From the NCBI GenBank assembly GCA_951406725.2, contig OX597824.1, positions 29,946,001 through 30,010,000 of the forward strand: DNA of 64,000 nucleotides. Reading direction: 5' to 3'. Origin of the DNA: Octopus vulgaris (Eukaryota). The notes below the pieces were generated by a model, which had not been told where the DNA came from, did no database searches, and saw only the letters and a program-made list of their open reading frames with translations. The position numbers and the translations under genes were made by a program. Positions 76-59,640 of this stretch are shown here, piece by piece. Within the stretch, counting starts at the first letter, position 1. Each line of letters begins with the position of its first letter.

Positions 76-860
<785 letters not shown>

Positions 861-989
861 TATATACATATGGTCTCCTATAGGAGAAATGAAACTGTTT
901 GGCACACGTTGGACTCGGAGTACACACGGAAGGATACGATTAAGCAGCGTAACGCTCTCTGGCGCTTCTGCTAATTCACTGCCTTACCA

Positions 990-1038
990 AGTAGTAGTGG
1001 TAGTAGTAGCAGCAGTAGTAGCAGCAGCAGTAGTAGTG

Positions 1039-1078
<40 letters not shown>

Positions 1079-1314
1079 GAGGAGGAGGAGGAGGAGGAGG
1101 AGGAGGAGGAAGACGAGAAGGAAGAGGAAGAGGAGGAGTGGTGGTGGTGGTGGTGGTGGTGGTGGTGGTGGTAGTGGTAGTTATACTGTCGTCATTGCTG
1201 CAGTTGTTTAGTTCCAGACCAGTCCTTATCGAACAGATGAAAGATATTCCAGTTGTGACTATTCCAACATGTATGCTGCTGCTGCTGCTGGCGGTGGCGG
1301 CGGCGGTGGTGGTG

Positions 1315-1359
<45 letters not shown>

Positions 1360-1545
1360 CAATTATTCGTTTTACTATTGGTATGACATGGAGATATGTT
1401 TGCGTTGGTGGTGGTGGTGACGGTCGTCGTTGTAGTAGTAGTAGCAGTAGTGGTGGTGGTAGTAGTGGTTGTGATTGTGATGGTGGTAGTTGTTTAAGTG
1501 ATGGCGGGTGTATCATTGTTGAGGTCGTCGTCGTCGTCGTTGTAG
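990..1545. repeat. Compound (GTA)n/(GGA)n/(GTG)n trinucleotide region
   Basis: Directly visible. Confidence 0.95.
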
Positions 1546-2016
1546 TGAGACTAGGTGAGTGGTAGTCTGTTTAGGTGAGAGGTTTCGCTTGACTGAGAAT
1601 CTAGTATGCCATGCCGGACGTGTCCCGCCTCTGTTTTAATCACACACACACACCAACACATGCTCACTCACAGACCCATATACACAACGCACACGCGCTT
1701 ACATACATGCTTACACAAAAATAGGCTTTCACACACGCATATACGAACACACGCACTTCGTTCCGCTTGACTGATCCGTTCCGTGTTAATTGAGCCATAT
1801 CTCTGAAGTGAGGACTTGATAGGCAGGTCAAATGGCAGGAATTATTCGCCCTATCTGAATTACACGGCTATAGCGGAACCTATAATGAAAATAAGAATAA
1901 GGGGAAGAATAAGGATGTCGTGGTTCGCCAGAGGGGCAGCAGCTGGAAAACAGAATATAAAACGAAAACACACAATGCCAGCGAGTTTCATTAAGAAGAA
2001 GCTGTTTGATTTTGAA

Positions 2017-2590
2017 ATACGCTTCGCAACCCCATGGTTTCCGGTTCAGTCCCACCTGCAGGGCACCTTGGGCTAACGTCTACTACTGAAGCCCCCGCGT
2101 CGACCAGTGCCTTGTGAGTGAATTTTGGTTGACGGAAACCGAAAGAAGCCCGTCGTATATGTGTGTGCGTGTGTTTGTGTGTGTGCATGTATGTCTCGAC
2201 CACGGTCGAACAATGATGATGATGATGTGTGTGTGTGTGTATGAGTGAGTGTATGTGTGTCTGCCTGTGTACGTGAGTGTGAGTGTGTATAATGTGTATG
2301 TTTGCGTGTATACGTATGTGAGTGTGAGTGAGTATGTGTATGTGTGTGTGCGTGTCTGCATCGTTGTATTTATGTTTGTGTTTGACCTCCACCACTAGCA
2401 CTTGACAATCGGTGTTTGTTTGTTTACAACTCGTAACGTAGCTGTTCGGCGAATGAAAACTGATAGAATAAGTACCAGATTTTTTTTTAATCATAAGTAC
2501 TGCGGTCGATTTGTTTGACTAACCCCTTCAAGACAATGCCTCAGCATGGCCGAAGGTCAATGGCTGAAGCCTGAAACATGTAAAAAGTAA
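2017..2590 (+). mobile_element. SINE family A, diverged
   Basis: Matches family A head and tail blocks; expanded internal TG tract. Confidence 0.8.
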
Positions 2591-3104
2591 AAAAAAATAG
2601 AAGATATAAAAAGTACATAAAACCCGTTTGTATATAAATTATTTGTAAAATATTTTTACGACTGGGTTTACGTCCATAAATTTTATAGAGAGTAACAATG
2701 GATTAAACCGAGCCGGGTGCTTGATTTAATGAAGTGACGGGGTAAGAGGTTCACATGGGAAAATATTTGACTTATTCATAACACCGTAAAAAATATTGCT
2801 GTCTTGGGAGGGTCATTACGCCAATAATAACACGCTTTGGTTGAATATCACTTCTTTATTGTTAGTCGTTCGGTAAAATATCTAACCAAATAATTAATTG
2901 ATCGTTTGTTTGATGTTTTGGTTAATCAACTAATTGGTTGTTTGTCTGTCAAAGTCCTTTCTCGCTATTAGTGACCCCATCAATGACATACCATAAATAA
3001 TAATTACAGAATTTGAATGTAGAACGTAAAGAGCTGGAACAAACAGCGCAAAACATTTTGTTCGACGCCCTAACGATTCGACCAATCCAATAGATTTTTT
3101 TTTT

Positions 3105-3575
3105 TTATCTTTAACTTGTTTCAGACATTAGACTGCGGTCATGCAGGAGGTCGTCTCGAAAGGTTTTAAATGAATAAATTGTATCCAGGTACTTATTTTA
3201 TGACCCAATACTAATTCTATCGCCTCTTTTACCGAACTGTCAGGTTACGAGGACGCAAACAAACCAACACCAGTTTATAAACTGACTGATTGATTTACCG
3301 AATGTTTCGTGTGTGTGCGTGTGTGTATTGCTTAACACATACACACACAAAGACACACACATACGCACACACGCATACACATACAGATATATGTGTGTGG
3401 ATGTATATGTATGTATACGACAGGCTTCCACACAGTTTCCGTCTAACAAACTTCTTTACAAAGCGTTGGTAGCCAGCGATATAGCAGAAGACATTTACTC
3501 AAACTGTCGCGTAGTGAGACTGAACTCGAAACCACGTGCTTACAATGCTAGCTTGTTAACTACACACCCATACCT
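3105..3575 (-). mobile_element. SINE family A, diverged
   Basis: Similar to 76-487. Confidence 0.75.
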
Positions 3576-3667
3576 TTGCTTAGACTTGCTTAAAATAGCA
3601 GCTAAATTCTCCTCAAACTACCCATTACAATCTACAAAACCGAAGTATTCGTTGTTGGAATAATATA

Positions 3668-3922
3668 ACCTATTTCTTTATTACCCACAAAGGGCTAAAC
3701 ACAGAGGGGACAAACAAGGACAGACATAGGTATTAAATCGATTACATCGACCCCAGTGCGTAACTGCTACTTAATTTATCGACCCCGAAAGGATGAAAGG
3801 CAAAGTCGACCTCGGCGGAATTTGAACTCACAACGTAACGGCAGACGAAATACCTCTAAGCATTTCGCCCGGCGTGCTAACGTTTCTGCCAGCTCACCGC
3901 CTTCTTCTGCCAGCTCGCCGCC
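3668..3922 (-). mobile_element. tRNA-like SINE, family B
   Basis: Minus strand GGCGGCGAGCTGGCAGAA...GAGTTCAAATTCCGCC, central GCCTTTCATCCTTTCGGGGTCGATAAATTAAGTA block, tail ending AATAAAGAAATA; short duplication of the head. Confidence 0.9.
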
Positions 3923-4084
3923 TTGTTGGAACAATATAACCGTGGACATATTGGTCATGGATGGGACGCGTTGATCATAGGTTTGTTTGATCAAATCTAG
4001 TCGTGGAGATAAGAAATCAACAGCAACATCAACAAAAACTATAAATTGATTCAATGATGGCAAGAGTTGGTGTTTGTTTGTTTG

Positions 4085-4375
4085 TTCCTTCTCTAGCCAT
4101 GCCTGGCTCATAAGGGCCGGTTTCCCGGTTTCCTTGGCGCATAGGTCCCCCACCTGGAGGGGACGCCGGCCCGTCGCAGGTGAGCTGCAAGATGCAGGAG
4201 GAGAGAGTGAGAGAAAGTTGTGGCGAAAGAGTCAGCAGAAGCTCGCCATTACCTTCTGCCGGAGCCGCGTGGAGCTTAGGTATTTCGCTCATAAACACAC
4301 ACATCGCCCGGGCTGAGATTTGAACCTGCGATCCCTCGACCGCGAATCCGCTGCTCTAACCACTAGGTCATGTGC
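4085..4375 (-). mobile_element. tRNA-derived SINE, family C
   Basis: Head ending ...CCTAGTGGTTAGAGCAGCGGATTCGCGGTCG; homologous to 35219-35520. Confidence 0.85.
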
Positions 4376-4553
4376 TGCAGTGCTGTTTCTTCATCTTGTT
4401 TCCTCAACTTTCGCGATTTACCTGTTGTAAACAACGAAAGACCTGGGTTAGAGAGACGTCATGTCACTGATGAGGTCGCGAATGACTAACAAATTTAATT
4501 GACTAATTGATTGACCGAATGTTTTAAACAATCAATTAGCTAATTGATTAAAT

Positions 4554-4948
4554 AGGCGCAGGAGTGGCTGTGTGGTAAGTAGCTTGCTTACCAACCACAT
4601 GGTTCCGAGTTCAGTCCCACTGCGTGGCACCTTGGGCAAGTGTCTTACAATATAACCTCGGGCCGACCAAAGCCTTGTGAGTGGATTTGGTAGACGGAAA
4701 CTGAAATAAGCCCGTTGTATATATGTATAAGCATATATATGTGTGTGTCTGTGTTTGTCCCCCACCCAACATCGCTTGACAACCGATGCTGGTGTGTTTA
4801 CGTCTCCGTAACTTAGCAGCTCAGTAAAAGAGACCGATAGAATAAGTACTAGGCTTACAAAGAATAAGTCCTGTGGTCGATTTGCTCGACTAAAGGCGGT
4901 GCTCCAGCATGGCCGCAGTCAAATGACTGAATCAAGTAAAAGAGAGAG
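4554..4948 (+). mobile_element. SINE family A, full length
   Basis: Near-consensus copy. Confidence 0.9.
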
Positions 4949-4974
4949 TTAAAAATTGACATATAATAATTACT

Positions 4975-5755
4975 ATTTTTACTATAGGCATGATGCCTGA
5001 AACTTTGGTGGGCAGGGCTAGACAATTGCATCGACCCTAGTGCTCAACTGGTACATATTTCATCGACTCCGAAAGAATATAAAACAAAGTCGACGTCAGC
5101 TACATTTGAACTCAATACTGAGATGAACGAAATGCAGCTAAGGCATTTTAACTGGAGTGCTAACGATTCTGCTAGCTTGCCGCTCAAATCTTTTCTTTTC
5201 TACTCTAGGCACAAGGCCCGAAAGTTTTAGGGAGGGGGGGGCAGTCGATTACATCGACACCAGTACGCAACTGGTACTTAATTTATCGACCCCGAAAGGA
5301 TGAAAGGCAAAGTCGACCTCAATGGAATTTGAACTCAGAACGTAAAGACAGACGAAATACCTATTTCTTTATTGCCCACAAGGGGCTAAACACAGAGTGG
5401 ACAAACAAGGACAGACATAGGTATTAAGTCGATTACATCGACCCCAGTGCATAACTGGTACTTAATTTATCGACCCCGAAAGGATGAAAGGCAAAGTCGA
5501 CATCGGCGGAATTTGAACTCACAACGTAACGCAGACGAAATACCGCTAAGCATTTCGTCCGGCGTGCTAACGTTTCGGCCAGCTCGCCGCCCTGCTCAAA
5601 TCTTTTCTACAATAGAAACAAGGCCTGAAATTTGGCGACGTGGAGAGGAATAACTGATTCCCTTAATCCCAGTGCAAGGATGAGAAGCAAAATTTGAACT
5701 CAGAACGTAATGAGCCAAAGGAAATACCACTAGGCATTTACTCCGACGTGCTAAC
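4975..5755 (-). mobile_element. Cluster of family B SINE copies
   Basis: About four same-orientation partial or full copies. Confidence 0.85.
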
Positions 5756-6350
5756 AAGTCTAAAAGTAGTAAAACTAAGCTTGTGCGCATGTTGGCATAA
5801 TGACCCTCCCGAAATACAGCAAAACATGCAAAAGGAACATACGGGTAGTGATGACAAAGTGACGTCAGTGTTTAACACTCGTCAAGAACTCCCACGTTTT
5901 ACTGTTTATGCGGTAGTCTCCTCTCTAACGGAATTACTCAGGTGTGTCCGTCCACTTAACGAACAACATGTTGAAGCAACGAAAATATCGTCAAAGGAGA
6001 CCAAATTTTGTCACAGGTGTCTTCCTTGGTGGATAGAGAAATCAGGTGAAAGTTAATCACAACAGGTGTTCACGTTGTTTGCAGTGAAATTCAAATCCGA
6101 TGGATAATCCCTCTTCAATGTAGGTCGCCGGTTTGTGAAAACACAAGACGACGAGCCAACTAGTTATAAATCGTGTACTCCCATTGCAGTCGTTTATTTC
6201 TCTACAGAGCGAGTCCCATAAATCACCACGCTTGTAAGGTGACCTCTTGACGACTTGAGATCTTCATGTTTCTCCAACGAGTAAGATGAGTGAAATCCTT
6301 CTTCGCCAAATTAACCTACAGCATTATATATTATATATGGTGATATAAAT

Positions 6351-17440: not shown

Positions 17441-18177
17441 GTTTGATCTTGTTTTTGTAATTGAAATCTACTTGAAGCATGAGTTTCGGTCAAGGTCTTA
17501 GTGTTTTCGTGTCAGGGTATTCTTGTAAGTATGGAGGTTGGAGGTGTAATGGTGTATGTTTGCGCGTATGAATATGCGTGTCTCCTATGAATTTCTCGTT
17601 TATACAGTAACACGTTAAATACCCTTCTGTATATCGACAAACATGAACCGACCTTAATGAAAACAGGGAATTATTCCTTATAAGGCGGGCGACCTTATGC
17701 GATGGAGTTTCTTTTGCCCTCAGTTCAATGTGAACGATAATTTGTTTTCTTTCGCTTAACAGGTATGCTGAGGTGGTGGTGGTGGTGGTGGTAGTGGCGG
17801 CGGCAGCGTTGGTGGTGGTGTTTGTGACGGGATTGATTATGTTCTTCGTGTTTGCAACAATGCTTACCTTGTGCATAGAGAATATGCATACATACACAAA
17901 TACATATACAAATACACGTACACACATACACACACACACATTTTGTATCCGATCATCATCGGACAGACATTATAGTCTATCACTAGACTGATTGCACAAA
18001 ATATTTAGTGATATGTAACCCTGTTCACCTTCATACATACAGGGGGATTAGATTGTTAAACTTGTGGTGTAAATCATAACACAATCACTAAGCAAGCGTT
18101 GGATTCATGAGTCCTTTATTTCTTTTTCCTTCAGCCATCCTTTCTCAATCATTCGCATCTTTTACTTTTTTAATCTT

Positions 18178-18213
18178 TCTTCTGATGAAGGAATTGCATT
18201 CGAAACGTCAAGA
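18178..18213 (+). ncRNA. Minimal type I hammerhead with canonical core
   Basis: TCTT-CTGATGA-AG-GAAT-TGC-ATTC-GAAA-CG-TC-AAGA; palindromic ACGT stem III; GUC site. Confidence 0.75.
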
Positions 18214-20782: not shown

Positions 20783-20838
<56 letters not shown>

Positions 20839-20841
<3 letters not shown>

Positions 20842-21305
20842 TGTATATACTTGTGCATTTTCCGGTGGCTGCAATGGTGTAGCGGAATATATAATTCTCA
20901 TGTCGCCGGCGTTTAAACACCCTAGAGCCATGAATAGGCGAGATAACTCACCCTCAATCCCCTTTGGGAGTGATGGACATCGATGTTTCGCGATTTTTGT
21001 GGCTTATCAACACCACCCACCTGCTTGAGTTGAAAAAGAGTCAGCTAGCCAGTTCAACAACTTATATGCTCATGGCTTGTAAAATCATGAGCTGGTATGC
21101 CGGGAAATTGCATACCTAAGAGGAAATTTACATATGAAGTAAAAGCAGCTCTAGTACAATAAATATTGTTAAATACATATACTAATGTATATGCTTCGTG
21201 TATTTTTCCGTTGGCTGCAATGGCGTAGCAGAGTATATAACTCTCATGTCGCCGGTGTTAAAACACCATAGAGCCATGAACAGGCGAGATAACTCACCCT
21301 CAATC
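20839..21305 (-). mobile_element. Retrozyme-like partial tandem, period about 345 bp
   Basis: About 120-bp direct repeats at 20839-20959 and 21183-21305 with a hammerhead between them. Confidence 0.7.
20968..21018 (-). ncRNA. Type I hammerhead with U3/A8 core variant
   Basis: GGGTGGTG-TTGATAA-GC..GC-GAAA-CATCGATG-TC-CATCACTC; 8-bp stem I; palindromic stem III; GUC site. Confidence 0.75.
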
Positions 21306-21631: not shown

Positions 21632-22076
21632 TTGGAAATTGTTGAAATAGGGTCCACTCTGGCAGTAAATTTTACGACAGTTCAGTGAATCATCCAAGAA
21701 TAGTTTTACAATTCAATGTTGTCTCCTCATTAAGTGCCGAAATACTGACTCTGGAAATGGCTCCTATGTTCTGAGAAAACCGTGCGCTTAAGCATGAAAA
21801 CTAAGATTTATTCAATCGGCGATTAATAAGTGGAACCTAGGCGTGAATCCATCATGACGATCCTCAGACAAAAGAACTATCCAAAGAGCTTAAGGGTCTT
21901 TTTTTTTTTTTTCCAATTTAGGCTATGTGGAGCAAAACATATTGTTTACAGAAATTACATAAAGAGGACGGGTTGAGAGGCAAGGTTAACGAAATGAGAG
22001 GGGGAAAACTAGTGACCTAGTCAGACAGATTTAAAAACAAAACATGTTGACGATATATAATAATAGATATAAGTGA

Positions 22077-22395
22077 GGGCGCGTGGCTTAGTGGTTAGGG
22101 CATTCGGCTCATGATCGTAAGGTTGTGAGTTCGATTCCCGGCGACGCGTTGTGTCCTTGAGCAAGACACTTTATTTCACGTTGCTCCAGTCCACTCAACT
22201 GGCAAAAATGAGTTGTACTTGTATTTCAAAGGGTCAGCCTTGTCACACTCTGTGTCACGCTGATTATCCCCGAGAACTACGTTAAGGGTACACGTGTCTG
22301 TGGAATGCTCAGCCATTTGCACGTTAATTTCACGAGCAAGCTGTTCCGTTGATCGTATCAGCTGGGACCCTCGTCGTCGTAACCGGCGGAGTCTT
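22077..22395 (+). mobile_element. SINE family C with CORE-like central block, full length
   Basis: GGGCGCGTGGCTTAGTGGTTAGG...GAGTTCGATTCCC head, then TGTGTCCTTGAGCAAGACACTT; homologous to 43458-43777. Confidence 0.9.
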
Positions 22396-37269: not shown

Positions 37270-38325
37270 TGATTTGAAAGAGATTTTGGCTCCTATTTTT
37301 AGCAGATGAAACAATTATGTAGGGTCTACCTTGTTGTCTTTATTGCGCATTTTTGAAGATTTGACTCCTATTTTTAGAAGGTTGAGCAATTATGTAAAAA
37401 CTACCTGGTTGTATTTATTGTGTGATTTGTGGGAGATTTAGCTCTTATTTTCAGCAGATAGAGCAATTATGTAGAGGCTACCTCGTTGGCTTTATTGTGT
37501 GACTAGCAGTATAGCCCGGCGTTGCTCGGGTTTGTTTTTTAAAACGGCGGACTTTGATGTCGCGTTAACAAAGTTAAAACGGTAGACTATTCATTGATCA
37601 TAGTCTAAGTGAATATCTAAATGTTGTATCAGAGGATACCTATCATGGATGGGGAAACCGAATATCCTCCAAAATGCCTCATTACTATTGATGTAGCGAC
37701 CAACTAAGTACTGTTTTACTTCATCTCTACTTTCATCTTTTTTTAGTCCAAACGAAGCGGCATCGGAACCCTTGTTAATGTATTTACATATGCATTTTAT
37801 GCATTTCACGGAACTATAAAATTCTGGTACCTGTAAGAAGAAGTTTAAGTGGCTGTGGTTGATTCCTAGGGAGTTTTTAAGTGAACATTTTTCTGGTTGA
37901 AATACACCGAAAAATGGCGACACAGCAGTCAAAAAATCGTAAAAAAATAAGGATTTTCATACAAAAGAAGCACCTTTTTTATGTAAATGATTTTTGGTCT
38001 TAATATGGTTCGATTTGAATTTTTCATTCTACGGAATGAAGAGCAAGCTTTCTTCTATCATACTCTCAATTTTGGTCAACTTGCGCCGCAGGGTCTCAGA
38101 GGAGATAGTGTTAGTTGAAGGGTACCAAACCTGCCACACACACACACACAGACAACTTCAGCTTTATGTATATAGATTTGAGAAAAATTTGGCTTCTATT
38201 TTTAGCAGATAAAGCAATTATGCAGAGGTGACCTCGTTGGCTTAAATGTATGATTTGAGAGTGATTTGGCACCTATTTTCAGCAGATTTAACAAGTATAT
38301 AGAGGCTCCCTCGTTGACTTTATTT
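37270..38325 (+). repeat. ~77-bp minisatellite of five diverged units, split by a Helitron
   Basis: Unit resembles GATTTGGCTCCTATTTTTAGCAGATAGAGCAATTATGTAGAGGCTACCTCGTTGGCTTTATTGTGT; three units left, two right. Confidence 0.8.
37503..38176 (-). mobile_element. Non-autonomous Helitron with Rep fragment
   Basis: 5'-TC at 38176; subterminal hairpin CCCGAGCAACGCCGGG; CTAG-3' at 37503; A|T target; peptide SVKCIKCICKYINKGSD...RYINSNEAFWRIFGFPIH at about 37600-37815. Confidence 0.9.
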
Positions 38326-45614: not shown

Positions 45615-46226
45615 TGATGATGGCCGTCCACTCGTGACCGAGGAAGACCATTGCCGACCTTCAGGAACATTGTGCGCTCTAGGACTAACTTATATTTTGC
45701 ATTTGCGGCTCCGTTGGTGGCTAATGAGCCCTGCTCTTGACAAGCATACACGACTGCAAACATTGCAGACCAAGCTTTCCCCATTCACTATACGAGTCGT
45801 GAGCTTTCGCGCAGCTCGCTTAAGTTCTTCATGCTGGATACGTGCTCTCTCAAAAGTGTCGATCCCCTCCTTAACTTGCTTCCTCCATCTGTGGCGATGA
45901 CAGGCATTGTTCTCCCAGTCAGTGTCCTGCATATCACAGGCCTTTAATGAGGACTTGACACAGTCCTTAAATCGCAGCCTTGCTTTCTGCCGGAGTCTCC
46001 TTCCATTCACAAGTTCTCCATAGAGCATCTGCTTAGGAATCCTGCTATCCCTCATTCTAATAAGGTGTTCAGTCGAACGTAACCGGTGCTTGTGCACCAT
46101 CGCCTCAATACTCAAAATATCAGCTGTCTTCAGGACCTTGTCTGGAATTTTTGAGGTCCAGCCAACATTGAGAATGTGTCTGAGACATCTCTGATGAAAG
46201 CGTTCAAGGATCCTTACCTGACGTTT
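45615..46226 (-). mobile_element. RTE-clade LINE 3' fragment (ORF C-terminus with C2H2 finger)
   Basis: LERFHQRCLRHIL...RIPKQMLYGEL...RFKDCVKSSLK...CNVCSRVCLSRAGLISHQR; (CAT)n tail; (TACA)n on both sides. Confidence 0.9.
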
Positions 46227-46313
46227 GTACATACATACATACATACATACATACATACATACATACATACATACATACATACATACATACATACATACGT
46301 ATATACATACAAG

Positions 46314-46408
46314 GTGGTGACAGTGATTTCGACGTTTCGGTCTGTTAGCCTTTATTGGACAGTTCGATGAAGGCTAGCAGTTCGAAACTTCGAAGCCACC
46401 ATCAACAC
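46314..46408. ncRNA. Inverted pair of degenerate minimal hammerhead motifs
   Basis: Plus strand CGATGAAGGCTAGCAGTTCGAAACTTCGAA; minus strand CAATAAAGGCTAACAGACCGAAACGTCGAA. Confidence 0.5.
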
Positions 46409-57421: not shown

Positions 57422-57823
57422 CTAAATCACCATGAAAAATTGTGGTTACATGTGTTATAAACATACAAACATATACGTGCATACATGCATGCATTCATTC
57501 ATATATACATACATACATACATACATACATGCATACAAGCATGCATGCATACATACATACATACATACATACATACATACATACATACATTTATACATAC
57601 ATACATACATACATACATACATACATACACACATACATACATACATACATACAAGCATGCATGCATGCATACATACATACATACATACATTCATTCATAC
57701 ATACATACATACATACATACATACATACATACATACATACATACATACATACATACATACATACATACATACATACATACATACATACATACATACATAC
57801 ATACATACATACATACATACATA

Positions 57824-59640
57824 CGGCATTTCAAAGGGAATATTCCAGGGAGATAGTCTTTCTATACTTCTTTTCATTTTGGCACTGAATCCATTATCGT
57901 TCCTACTGCAGAAAACAAATGGTTATATGCTAGGATTTTCAACTGCTAGAAATATCAATGTAACTCATTATTTCTTTGTAGACGACCTCAAGATTTATGC
58001 TAAAAGTGTTAACAATCCCAAAACACAAATGGAATGAATAGCAACATTTTCAGCTGATACAGGCATAGAATTTGGCCAAAAAAGAAATGTTCATATTTCG
58101 TTATAGAACGAGGAATGTCAGTCCCCCAAACCCAAAACCTATGCATCAACATTCTCTCTATCTCCCCCATTCCATAGAAAGAATGTTACAAGTACCTAGG
58201 CATTGATGAAAATGTATCATATGAAGGTACTGTGAATAATGGTAGAGTGACCCGAGAATATTACACCAGGCTCAGAAAAATATGGTAGTTGGAACTCTCC
58301 TCTTACAACAAAATAATATCCCACAATACATTTGCAGTGCCAGTACTGATTTCAACATTTGAGATACTTGAATGGTCTGTAGAGGAAATCCACTCCATAG
58401 ATATCAAAACCCGCAAAATCCTGACAACAACTGGGAACTTCCACAGAAACAGTGATGTTGACAGCTCTACCTAAGAAGAATTGAAGGTGTTAGACGTCTG
58501 AGACCAGTGCAGCCGGCCTTCGAATGCCGCGCGGTATCACTCAGGCAGCACCTGTTGAACAACAGCAGCAAAAATAAATATATAAGTGTAATGCTGAAAA
58601 GTGAAGTGAGCAACACTGTACGAGTTGGTAGTGAGCTCCTCAAGAAGCACTCTCTTCCTGATGATCTCCTATACAGCCCCAAAACAGCTGGACTATTTCT
58701 ATCCAAAAGACCTGGTTGGAAAGAACTCAGCATACAAGAAAAGACTATTCATGGGTATGTTGCCTGAAAGCTTGAAGACAGTAGAATTGACACGAAACGC
58801 AGCCTCTCTTGGACACAAGACCACTACATCACATCACACTTTGAAGGCTATGCGTTTGCAATCTGGGAACAGGAGATTGCCACAAAGTACCTGGCAAACA
58901 AGAGAGACAGTGACGCTCTTGTAATCCCAAGGTGCAACCGCATGTGTAGGCTATGTCATGTTTCTGTGGAAGACACTACACATGTGATTAGCAGCTGTCC
59001 TAAAATTTCGTCACGCTACTACCTCCCTATCTGGCACGACGTTGTCGCTGAAAACAATTTACAATACCATCCGCAAAAAGACTGTCCTGAAATAAACTTA
59101 GAAAATCCCTCTGTTATGGAATACATTCATAAACACCAACTCAAGGAATAATGGTGAAAATTCCCACCAAAACTTCTGTCAAATGTAAACATAACTGGCC
59201 GGATATTGTTGTTTGGGACAGAGGGACAAAGGTATGTACCGTCATAGAGGTCAGCTGCCATGAAGATATAAATATCTCTTTGAAAATCTAAGTAAAACAG
59301 GATATCTATGGACAACTGCTTCGAAGCCTCCAGCTTCTACATCCAGACTATGAATTCACATTCATACCAATAATAATTGGAGCACTAGGTTTCGTCAGTA
59401 AATGCTTAAAGGAGAATCTGGATTAACTGGGATTTTCAGAAAGAGAAATCGACCGGCTAATTCGTACATTACAAGTGCAATCTGTGAGTGGAACAATAAA
59501 TATATGCAAGACTTTTCTCAAGTTCCAAATGTAAATTTGTCCATGTTAACTTCATCCCAAAGATGGAGCCTTGTCTCTTGGTTGGCAACCGGCTCCCTCC
59601 TCCAATGGAAGATTCATAATAATTAAAAAATAGAAGAGAC
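57824..59640 (+). mobile_element. 5'-truncated R4/Dong-type non-LTR retrotransposon, pseudogenised
   Basis: RT motifs GIFQGDSLS and FVDDLKIYA; zinc knuckle CRLCHVSVEDTTHVISSC; endonuclease WPDIVVWD...IEVSC; stops and frameshifts; (TACA)n on both sides. Confidence 0.9.

Follow-up and report, generated by a model that had tools for sequence, protein, structure and literature searches.

A 467-bp element in the window, here the whole analysed stretch of 64,000 nucleotides of Octopus vulgaris DNA, carries a type I hammerhead ribozyme motif whose core positions 3 and 8 form a U-A pair. This U3-A8 pair is the majority state of the repeat family to which the element belongs, not a private double mutation of the window copy. 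We regard the element as very probably a retrozyme, or a Penelope-linked element, of a family with family-wide U3-A8.

Anatomy of the element

The window consists of microsatellite-rich animal DNA with a GC content of ~38%. The element spans 20839-21305 (467 bp), corresponding to 1.35 copies of a 345-nt unit with 40.6% GC. Its features are as follows, with the minus strand as the ribozyme sense:

20788..20837, no strand assigned: (TA)n tract, a 50-bp run adjoining the 3' end of the element (ribozyme sense)
20839..20959, minus: repeat copy 1 (3' copy in ribozyme sense), nt 17-136 past the cut site
20968..21018, minus: type I hammerhead ribozyme motif with stem I, U3-A8 core, stem II, palindromic stem III and GUC
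20977..20986, minus: perfect 10-nt palindrome forming stem III, a 10-bp helix in the double hammerhead
21010 (U3) and 21005 (A8), minus: U3-A8 core pair, family majority state
21019..21183, minus: unique part of the 345-nt unit, with the 5' strand of the distal stem I (decayed here) and small hairpins
~21157-21192, minus: TA-rich stretch within the unit
21184..21305, minus: repeat copy 2 (5' copy), its 5' end lying 16 nt beyond the cut-site position

The first-pass annotation had described ~120-bp direct repeats 345 bp apart, and these were borne out. The two copies lie at 20839/40-20959 and 21184/5-21305, with a start-to-start distance of 345-346 bp, and differ by 11 substitutions over 120 aligned columns and two one-base indels. 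The hammerhead sits just outside the duplicated segment, and the copy therefore carries only one. No ORF of at least 120 aa was found to overlap the unit, and no ORF was found between the repeats, where an autonomous Penelope-like element (PLE) would have RT and GIY-YIG. A second copy of the element was not found in the 64-kb window by blastn, and no target-site duplication is readable at the element. The (TA)n tract at 20788-20837 is a likely target or priming site, or else an added tail. On the plus strand, antisense to the ribozyme, positions 20875-20885 hold an 11-mer that we take to resemble the polymerase III A-box consensus; no clear B-box follows it.

The hammerhead motif

Stem I is formed by 21018-21011 with 20975-20968 as eight contiguous pairs, two of them G.U. 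It is open-ended, stems II and III are closed, and the pairs G10.1-C11.1 and A15.1-U16.1 are present, as in the type I layout. In the core, U3 corresponds to 21010, A8 to 21005, A9 to 21004 and G10.1 to 21003, and GAAA occupies 20989-20986. The pattern N3-UGA-N-N8-A / GAAA / UH with a Watson-Crick 3-8 pair is thus present, including U16.1 and C17. C17 lies at 20976, and the cut is predicted after GUC at 20976/20975. The palindrome has a duplex energy of -12.9 kcal/mol and forms no stable hairpin alone; stem III is also able to close within a monomer, as 3 bp with a palindromic tetraloop. These positions agree with the earlier description of a minus-strand hammerhead with an 8-bp stem I, U3-A8 core, GAAA, palindrome and GUC. 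The 2-bp stem II given in the same description held only in part, as stem II is a 4-bp helix with a loop CAAAAA, one C.C mismatch at pair 3 and A-U at pair 4, of which 2 bp remain uninterrupted here through decay.

This is the only motif in the window with a stem I of at least 7 bp, and such motifs occurred in 2 of 100 Markov-randomised windows. When a palindrome of at least 8 nt was combined with a stem I of at least 6 bp, none of the 100 randomised windows contained a motif. The Rfam family Hammerhead_HH9 matches 20956-21022 on the minus strand with an E-value of 0.00032 in a 111-nt search, but its 23.7 bits fall short of the gathering score, 52; across the whole window there were no Rfam matches at gathering score. 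Loop II of the copy equals the HH9 consensus, and the bulged A of loop I is absent from the window copy.

Several other candidates were rejected. The remaining Rfam E-value matches in the window are microsatellite artefacts, and a loose hammerhead-like match at +712 has a 1-bp stem II and stands at chance level (mean of 0.48 per random window). A scan with the motif pattern elsewhere returned two stretches in metagenome contigs and two in genome contigs, all with a stem I of 0-1 bp and attributable to chance, and none in viral contigs.

The repeat family in public runs

One unit (20840-21184) was aligned at 80% likeness to the contigs of four runs from four studies and three organisms. Part of the stretch is contained in 20 of the 21 listed runs, and none contains half of it. 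Three listed runs presumed to be RNA contained 0.05 of its words, which speaks neither for nor against expression, and shares below 0.2 in runs other than the four were left out of account. Contigs matching the unit numbered 663, 585, 580 and 1130 in the four runs, most of them less than 95% alike, and all 29 bins along the unit had depth. The unit thus belongs to an abundant, high-copy family. Differences from the unit are mostly transitions, and 34-47% of aligned contigs continue into sequence unlike the unit. The head-to-tail joint 21184>20851 occurred in all four runs, which makes the head-to-tail junction a trait of the family. Among the contigs shown, which are short, none spans two ribozymes.

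Other joints were rarer. Strand-switch joints supported by single contigs were noted at 20890/21138 in three runs and at 20975/21010 in two. A dip in depth at 21020-21055 is read as divergence of the window copy, not as a deletion. In the run of one further organism, loose ends appeared at 20963, 21063 and 21115, where subfamilies diverge from the unit.

Core and stem alleles across the family

Neither a C3 nor a G8 allele was found among the best 40 of 257 differences over the four runs, from which it follows that most of the family is U3-A8. The same 40 contain no difference at the other unpaired core bases. The weakest of the 40 reaches 0.34 of the depth in the run where it is strongest, as computed for 8 low rows and judged by eye for the rest, and we infer that the differences are ranked by share. 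C3 and G8 would then each lie below about one third of the depth in every run, a level at which minority C3-G8 copies are possible. The first-pass annotation had named, as the outcome that would undo its reading, a C3-G8 consensus with only this copy mutated; the family majority proved to be U3-A8.

At pair 3 of stem II a G stands opposite C in 0.89-0.90 of the depth in three runs, so the C.C mismatch of the window copy is private decay and the majority stem II of the family is 4 bp long. In the fourth run, from another organism, the same pair has U at 0.58 and A at 0.71, compared with 0.01-0.02 and 0.06-0.09 elsewhere. Although the alleles are unphased, this change from C-G to U-A appears to be a compensatory switch. 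Stem I pair 3 is A-U in 0.33-0.66 of the family and G.U in the window copy, and the bulged A of loop I is present in 0.55-0.86 of the family depth. The change C11.1>U reaches 0.28-0.35 of family depth, which implies that many copies are dead. Its frequency is as would be expected from CpG decay, and it counts against activity of the bulk of the copies.

A probable sister family

In three runs the depth was ~18,500-44,000 over 20972-21007 as against ~850-5,800 over 21020-21184. Among the 24 of 840 loose ends shown, the commonest leave the unit at 20967-20972 and at 21010-21016, with an agreement of 0.58-0.72, and run on into a related but different unit; a loose end was also noted at 20936. The alignments of this second unit pass through positions 3 and 8. 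By eye, the loose-end consensus shows a proximal stem I of 6 bp, the UAC bulge also present in the HH9 consensus, and one more helix of 6 bp. Together these data point to a sister family of greater abundance that also has U3-A8 and the palindrome. That divergent families have kept the ribozyme and nothing else is the strongest sign in these data of selection on function. Besides the hammerhead, two small hairpins of the repeat recur in the sister family, which differs from the unit elsewhere.

Decay of the window copy

The two repeats differ by 9%, or ~4.6% for each on the assumption that they started out identical when the element inserted. Both carry one minority allele (20933/21279), which fits a common template. 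At ~4.6% decay, an unchanged 13-nt core has a probability of 0.54, and three or more changes in the 45-nt ribozyme a probability of 0.34. The former value gives no sign of selection on the window copy, whose neutral-looking decay extends to loop I and to both stems I and II. With a single hammerhead the copy would be unable to release unit-length RNA, and it is probably dead. Selection acted on the replicating lineage and not on the window copy. The earlier suggestion that U3-A8 hints at selection for activity therefore carries over to the family, where the stem II switch and the core kept between two families support selection on the ribozyme, and fails for the window copy, whose decay looks neutral.

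Proposed origin

The element agrees with the description of non-LTR retrozymes in having a non-coding unit of 150-450 bp, GC below 45%, a repeated family, a head-to-tail junction and a type I hammerhead. Such elements are reported to be expressed as circles and are probably moved by PLEs (PMC7229834; here and below, citations refer to the accessible parts of the sources). Retrozymes have been linked to PLE pLTRs and are described as needing two ribozymes for activity, with one of nine dimers cleaved (bioRxiv 10.64898/2026.07.22.740005); the window copy, with one hammerhead, falls short of this number. A plant LTR retrozyme was rejected, in which a type III hammerhead lies inside both 300-400 bp LTRs; here it is type I, single and outside the repeats.

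We lean slightly towards a full circle-template origin, in which the element is a decayed, dispersed copy of a non-LTR retrozyme. Master arrays with at least two hammerheads would be transcribed in the minus sense and the RNA cut after GUC, probably as double hammerheads held by the 10-bp palindrome. The monomers would be circularised by a host ligase. A Penelope-type RT/endonuclease would nick a (TA)n tract, at which the TA-rich stretch of the RNA would anneal and prime reverse transcription. Copying 1.35 times round the circle would leave a partial tandem with one hammerhead, unable to yield a new circle, which would then have decayed by ~4.6%.

Folding calculations bear on several of these steps. 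The double-hammerhead shape has -27.7 kcal/mol compared with a cofold minimum of -28.7, and its position within 1 kcal/mol of the dimer minimum makes dimer-type cleavage likely. The monomer hammerhead shape lies 4.4 kcal/mol above its minimum, and the 76-nt fold is unremarkable (z -0.77). The decayed unit folds with modest stability: the linear fold has a z of -2.21; the circular fold in the ribozyme sense has a z of -1.62, with 4 of 100 shuffles as good and 59% of bases paired, and the opposite strand does better, at a z of -2.61. Just past the 3' end, 17 of 24 bases of the family sequence agree with (TA)n, more than anywhere else in the unit (mean 9.2, sd 2.5), which suggests that the RNA annealed to a nicked (TA)n target for priming and that the 3' end is a favoured position, not a random one. 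The 5' end falls at nt 17 past the cut, and both ends of the element may be non-random.

Whether a circle was involved is the main point of competition. A linear template would be a multimeric transcript that one hammerhead had cut and the next had left intact, or else two monomers linked through a template jump, primed internally at the TA-rich stretch and losing the last 16 nt. The 5' end at nt 17 past the cut speaks for it, as this would arise on a circle in ~5% of cases by chance for one event; so do the palindromic stem III, which favours dimer-dependent and incomplete cleavage, and the low activity reported for such ribozymes (PMC4209133). Against this, only one event is at hand, copying of a circle that halted within its long stem I would produce the same end, and related retrozymes are reported to accumulate mainly as circles (PMC7229834). 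We consider a linear template possible but unlikely. The first-pass idea of a 1.35-unit insertion from circular RNA accordingly keeps its explanatory value for the anatomy and loses its exclusiveness, since a precursor that was cleaved and stayed linear accounts for it about equally; one insertion is explained by both.

The element could also be what is left of an autonomous Penelope-like element, either its truncated 3' end or a partial tandem of its pLTR, with the RT/GIY-YIG ORF absent at this site. Partial tandems and a (TA)n bias are PLE traits (bioRxiv 10.1101/2021.04.23.441226), matching 1.35 units beside a 50-bp (TA)n run, U3-A8 is reported in PLE hammerheads (PMC4209133), and a third or more of aligned contigs continue unlike the unit. 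The 345-nt unit nevertheless closes on itself in all four runs, and the loose ends shown enter a homologous second unit with no evident ORF. The ribozyme is canonical, with a 6-bp proximal stem I, 4-bp stem II and loop I/II bases, and not PLE-minimal, and it lies outside the duplicated part. We judge a PLE remnant improbable. Still less probable is a satellite-like repeat amplified at the DNA level, with an inactive relic ribozyme and U3-A8 fixed by drift in one master copy. The low likeness of most contigs (<95%), the predominance of transitions and the finding that eight of nine Xenopus retrozyme dimers showed no cleavage in vitro (bioRxiv 10.64898/2026.07.22.740005) would suit such a repeat. 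The depth peaks on the hammerhead, however, so that divergent families keep just that part, stem II changes in a compensatory manner, and the location of a dispersed copy next to (TA)n agrees with retrotransposition. A chance motif, or a C3-G8 family in which the window copy alone was mutated twice, has a negligible probability: the HH9 score is below gathering and 217 differences lie beyond the best 40, but none of the 100 randomised windows matched and a majority C3 or G8 would rank among the best 40 of 257, which reach down to a share of 0.34.

Other elements in the window

A PLE-type minimal hammerhead was noted at 18177-18212 on the plus strand, with the ordinary C3-G8 in its core, one additional base ahead of stem II and a palindrome of 4 nt. 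It sits in a ~350-bp island between microsatellites, 2.7 kb from the element, and a motif like it occurred in 1 of 100 random windows; it suggests the presence of Penelope relics in the genome. A Pfam search of four ORF fragments of the window returned one RT fragment below the curated cut-off (RVT_1, E 2.6e-5) at 57816-58034 on the plus strand, fused to a microsatellite. By motif, we presume it to be from a non-LTR element rather than a PLE. GIY-YIG was absent from the Pfam results for the four fragments, and no autonomous partner element was identified. The other three, at 45690-46373 (minus), 58768-59151 (plus) and 37591-37956 (minus), gave no Pfam match above cut-off; we take them to resemble ends of non-LTR retrotransposons and a Helitron. 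Positions 22070-22200 (plus) and many similar places presumably hold tRNA-like SINE heads of the octopus-genome kind. ARAGORN found no tRNA genes in the window.

Relation to known systems

Natural U3-A8 hammerheads have been described, and such pairs are stated as already active in vitro (PMC3088659). About 1,300 U3-A8 minimal hammerheads are reported in PLE relics of Schistosoma (PMC4209133). Circles have been proposed as templates for more-than-unit copies (PMC4209133), and more-than-unit copying is also described in PMC7229834. Natural U3-A8 and more-than-unit copying of circles are therefore already published; each ingredient is known, and no new principle is involved. For U3-A8, a literature search with most subscription journals and several supplements outside its scope found only PMC3088659 and PMC4209133, and a search of similarly incomplete coverage pairing hammerhead with octopus or cephalopod found no retrozyme paper. 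In the giant squid, 235 Hammerhead_1 loci are reported (PMC6962438). The probable novelty is that, in a ribozyme of canonical type I architecture, U3-A8 is the majority core of an abundant family and probably also of its sister family.

Here the 3-8 pair of the active hammerhead fold is confirmed by nature across an entire family of retrozymes with a canonical type I motif, and the family exemplifies a class of abundant repeats that would escape C3-G8 searches. It is also a good test system: in an assembled genome, the ends of dispersed copies could decide between a circular and a linear template in Penelope-driven retrotransposition. As a tentative extension, a lineage of two or more abundant retrozyme families, probably octopus ones, might long have been running on fixed U3-A8 type I hammerheads missed by C3-G8 descriptors and Rfam thresholds, spreading as more-than-unit copies primed by TA-rich circular RNA at (TA)n. 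If true, reverse transcription round a circle, so far no more than a proposed model, could be tested directly in the genome on the ends of thousands of copies.

The closest counterparts are the metazoan non-LTR retrozymes of coral, mussel (350-390 bp) and axolotl (330/350 bp) (PMC7229834). They likewise have a small non-coding unit with GC below 45%, one canonical type I hammerhead per unit, a head-to-tail junction and hundreds of divergent contigs per run. However, they are C3-G8, whereas U3-A8 is the family state here, and their stem III has 1-2 bp and a loop in place of the 10-nt palindrome. The window copy also differs as a single-ribozyme 1.35-mer, and circular RNA is a prediction for its family. 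Hammerheads of the Schistosoma Cercyon PLEs (PMC4209133) show the same U3-A8 covariation, high copy number, dispersed single motifs and dimer-type stem III. In contrast to the canonical motif described here, with no ORF attached, they are minimal (no stem III loop, a short stem I and a stem II of 7-8 bp) and tied to pLTRs. The U3-A8 hammerheads of PMC3088659 have the same compensatory 3-8 pair, scattered there but the majority of an abundant family here, and apparently of a second one.

Among RNA families, Rfam Hammerhead_HH9 (RF02275, clan CL00010) is the best match and has the same type I layout, loop II CAAAAA and GUC site. Its consensus is C3-G8, unlike U3-A8 here, and the match is a likeness of fold, not orthology. 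Penelope-like elements, with their Neptune and Poseidon pLTRs (bioRxiv 10.64898/2026.07.22.740005 and 10.1101/2021.04.23.441226), share the partial tandem, the type I hammerhead, the microsatellite target and the lack of a clear target-site duplication, but the element described here is without an RT or GIY-YIG ORF and keeps its hammerhead outside the duplicated segment.
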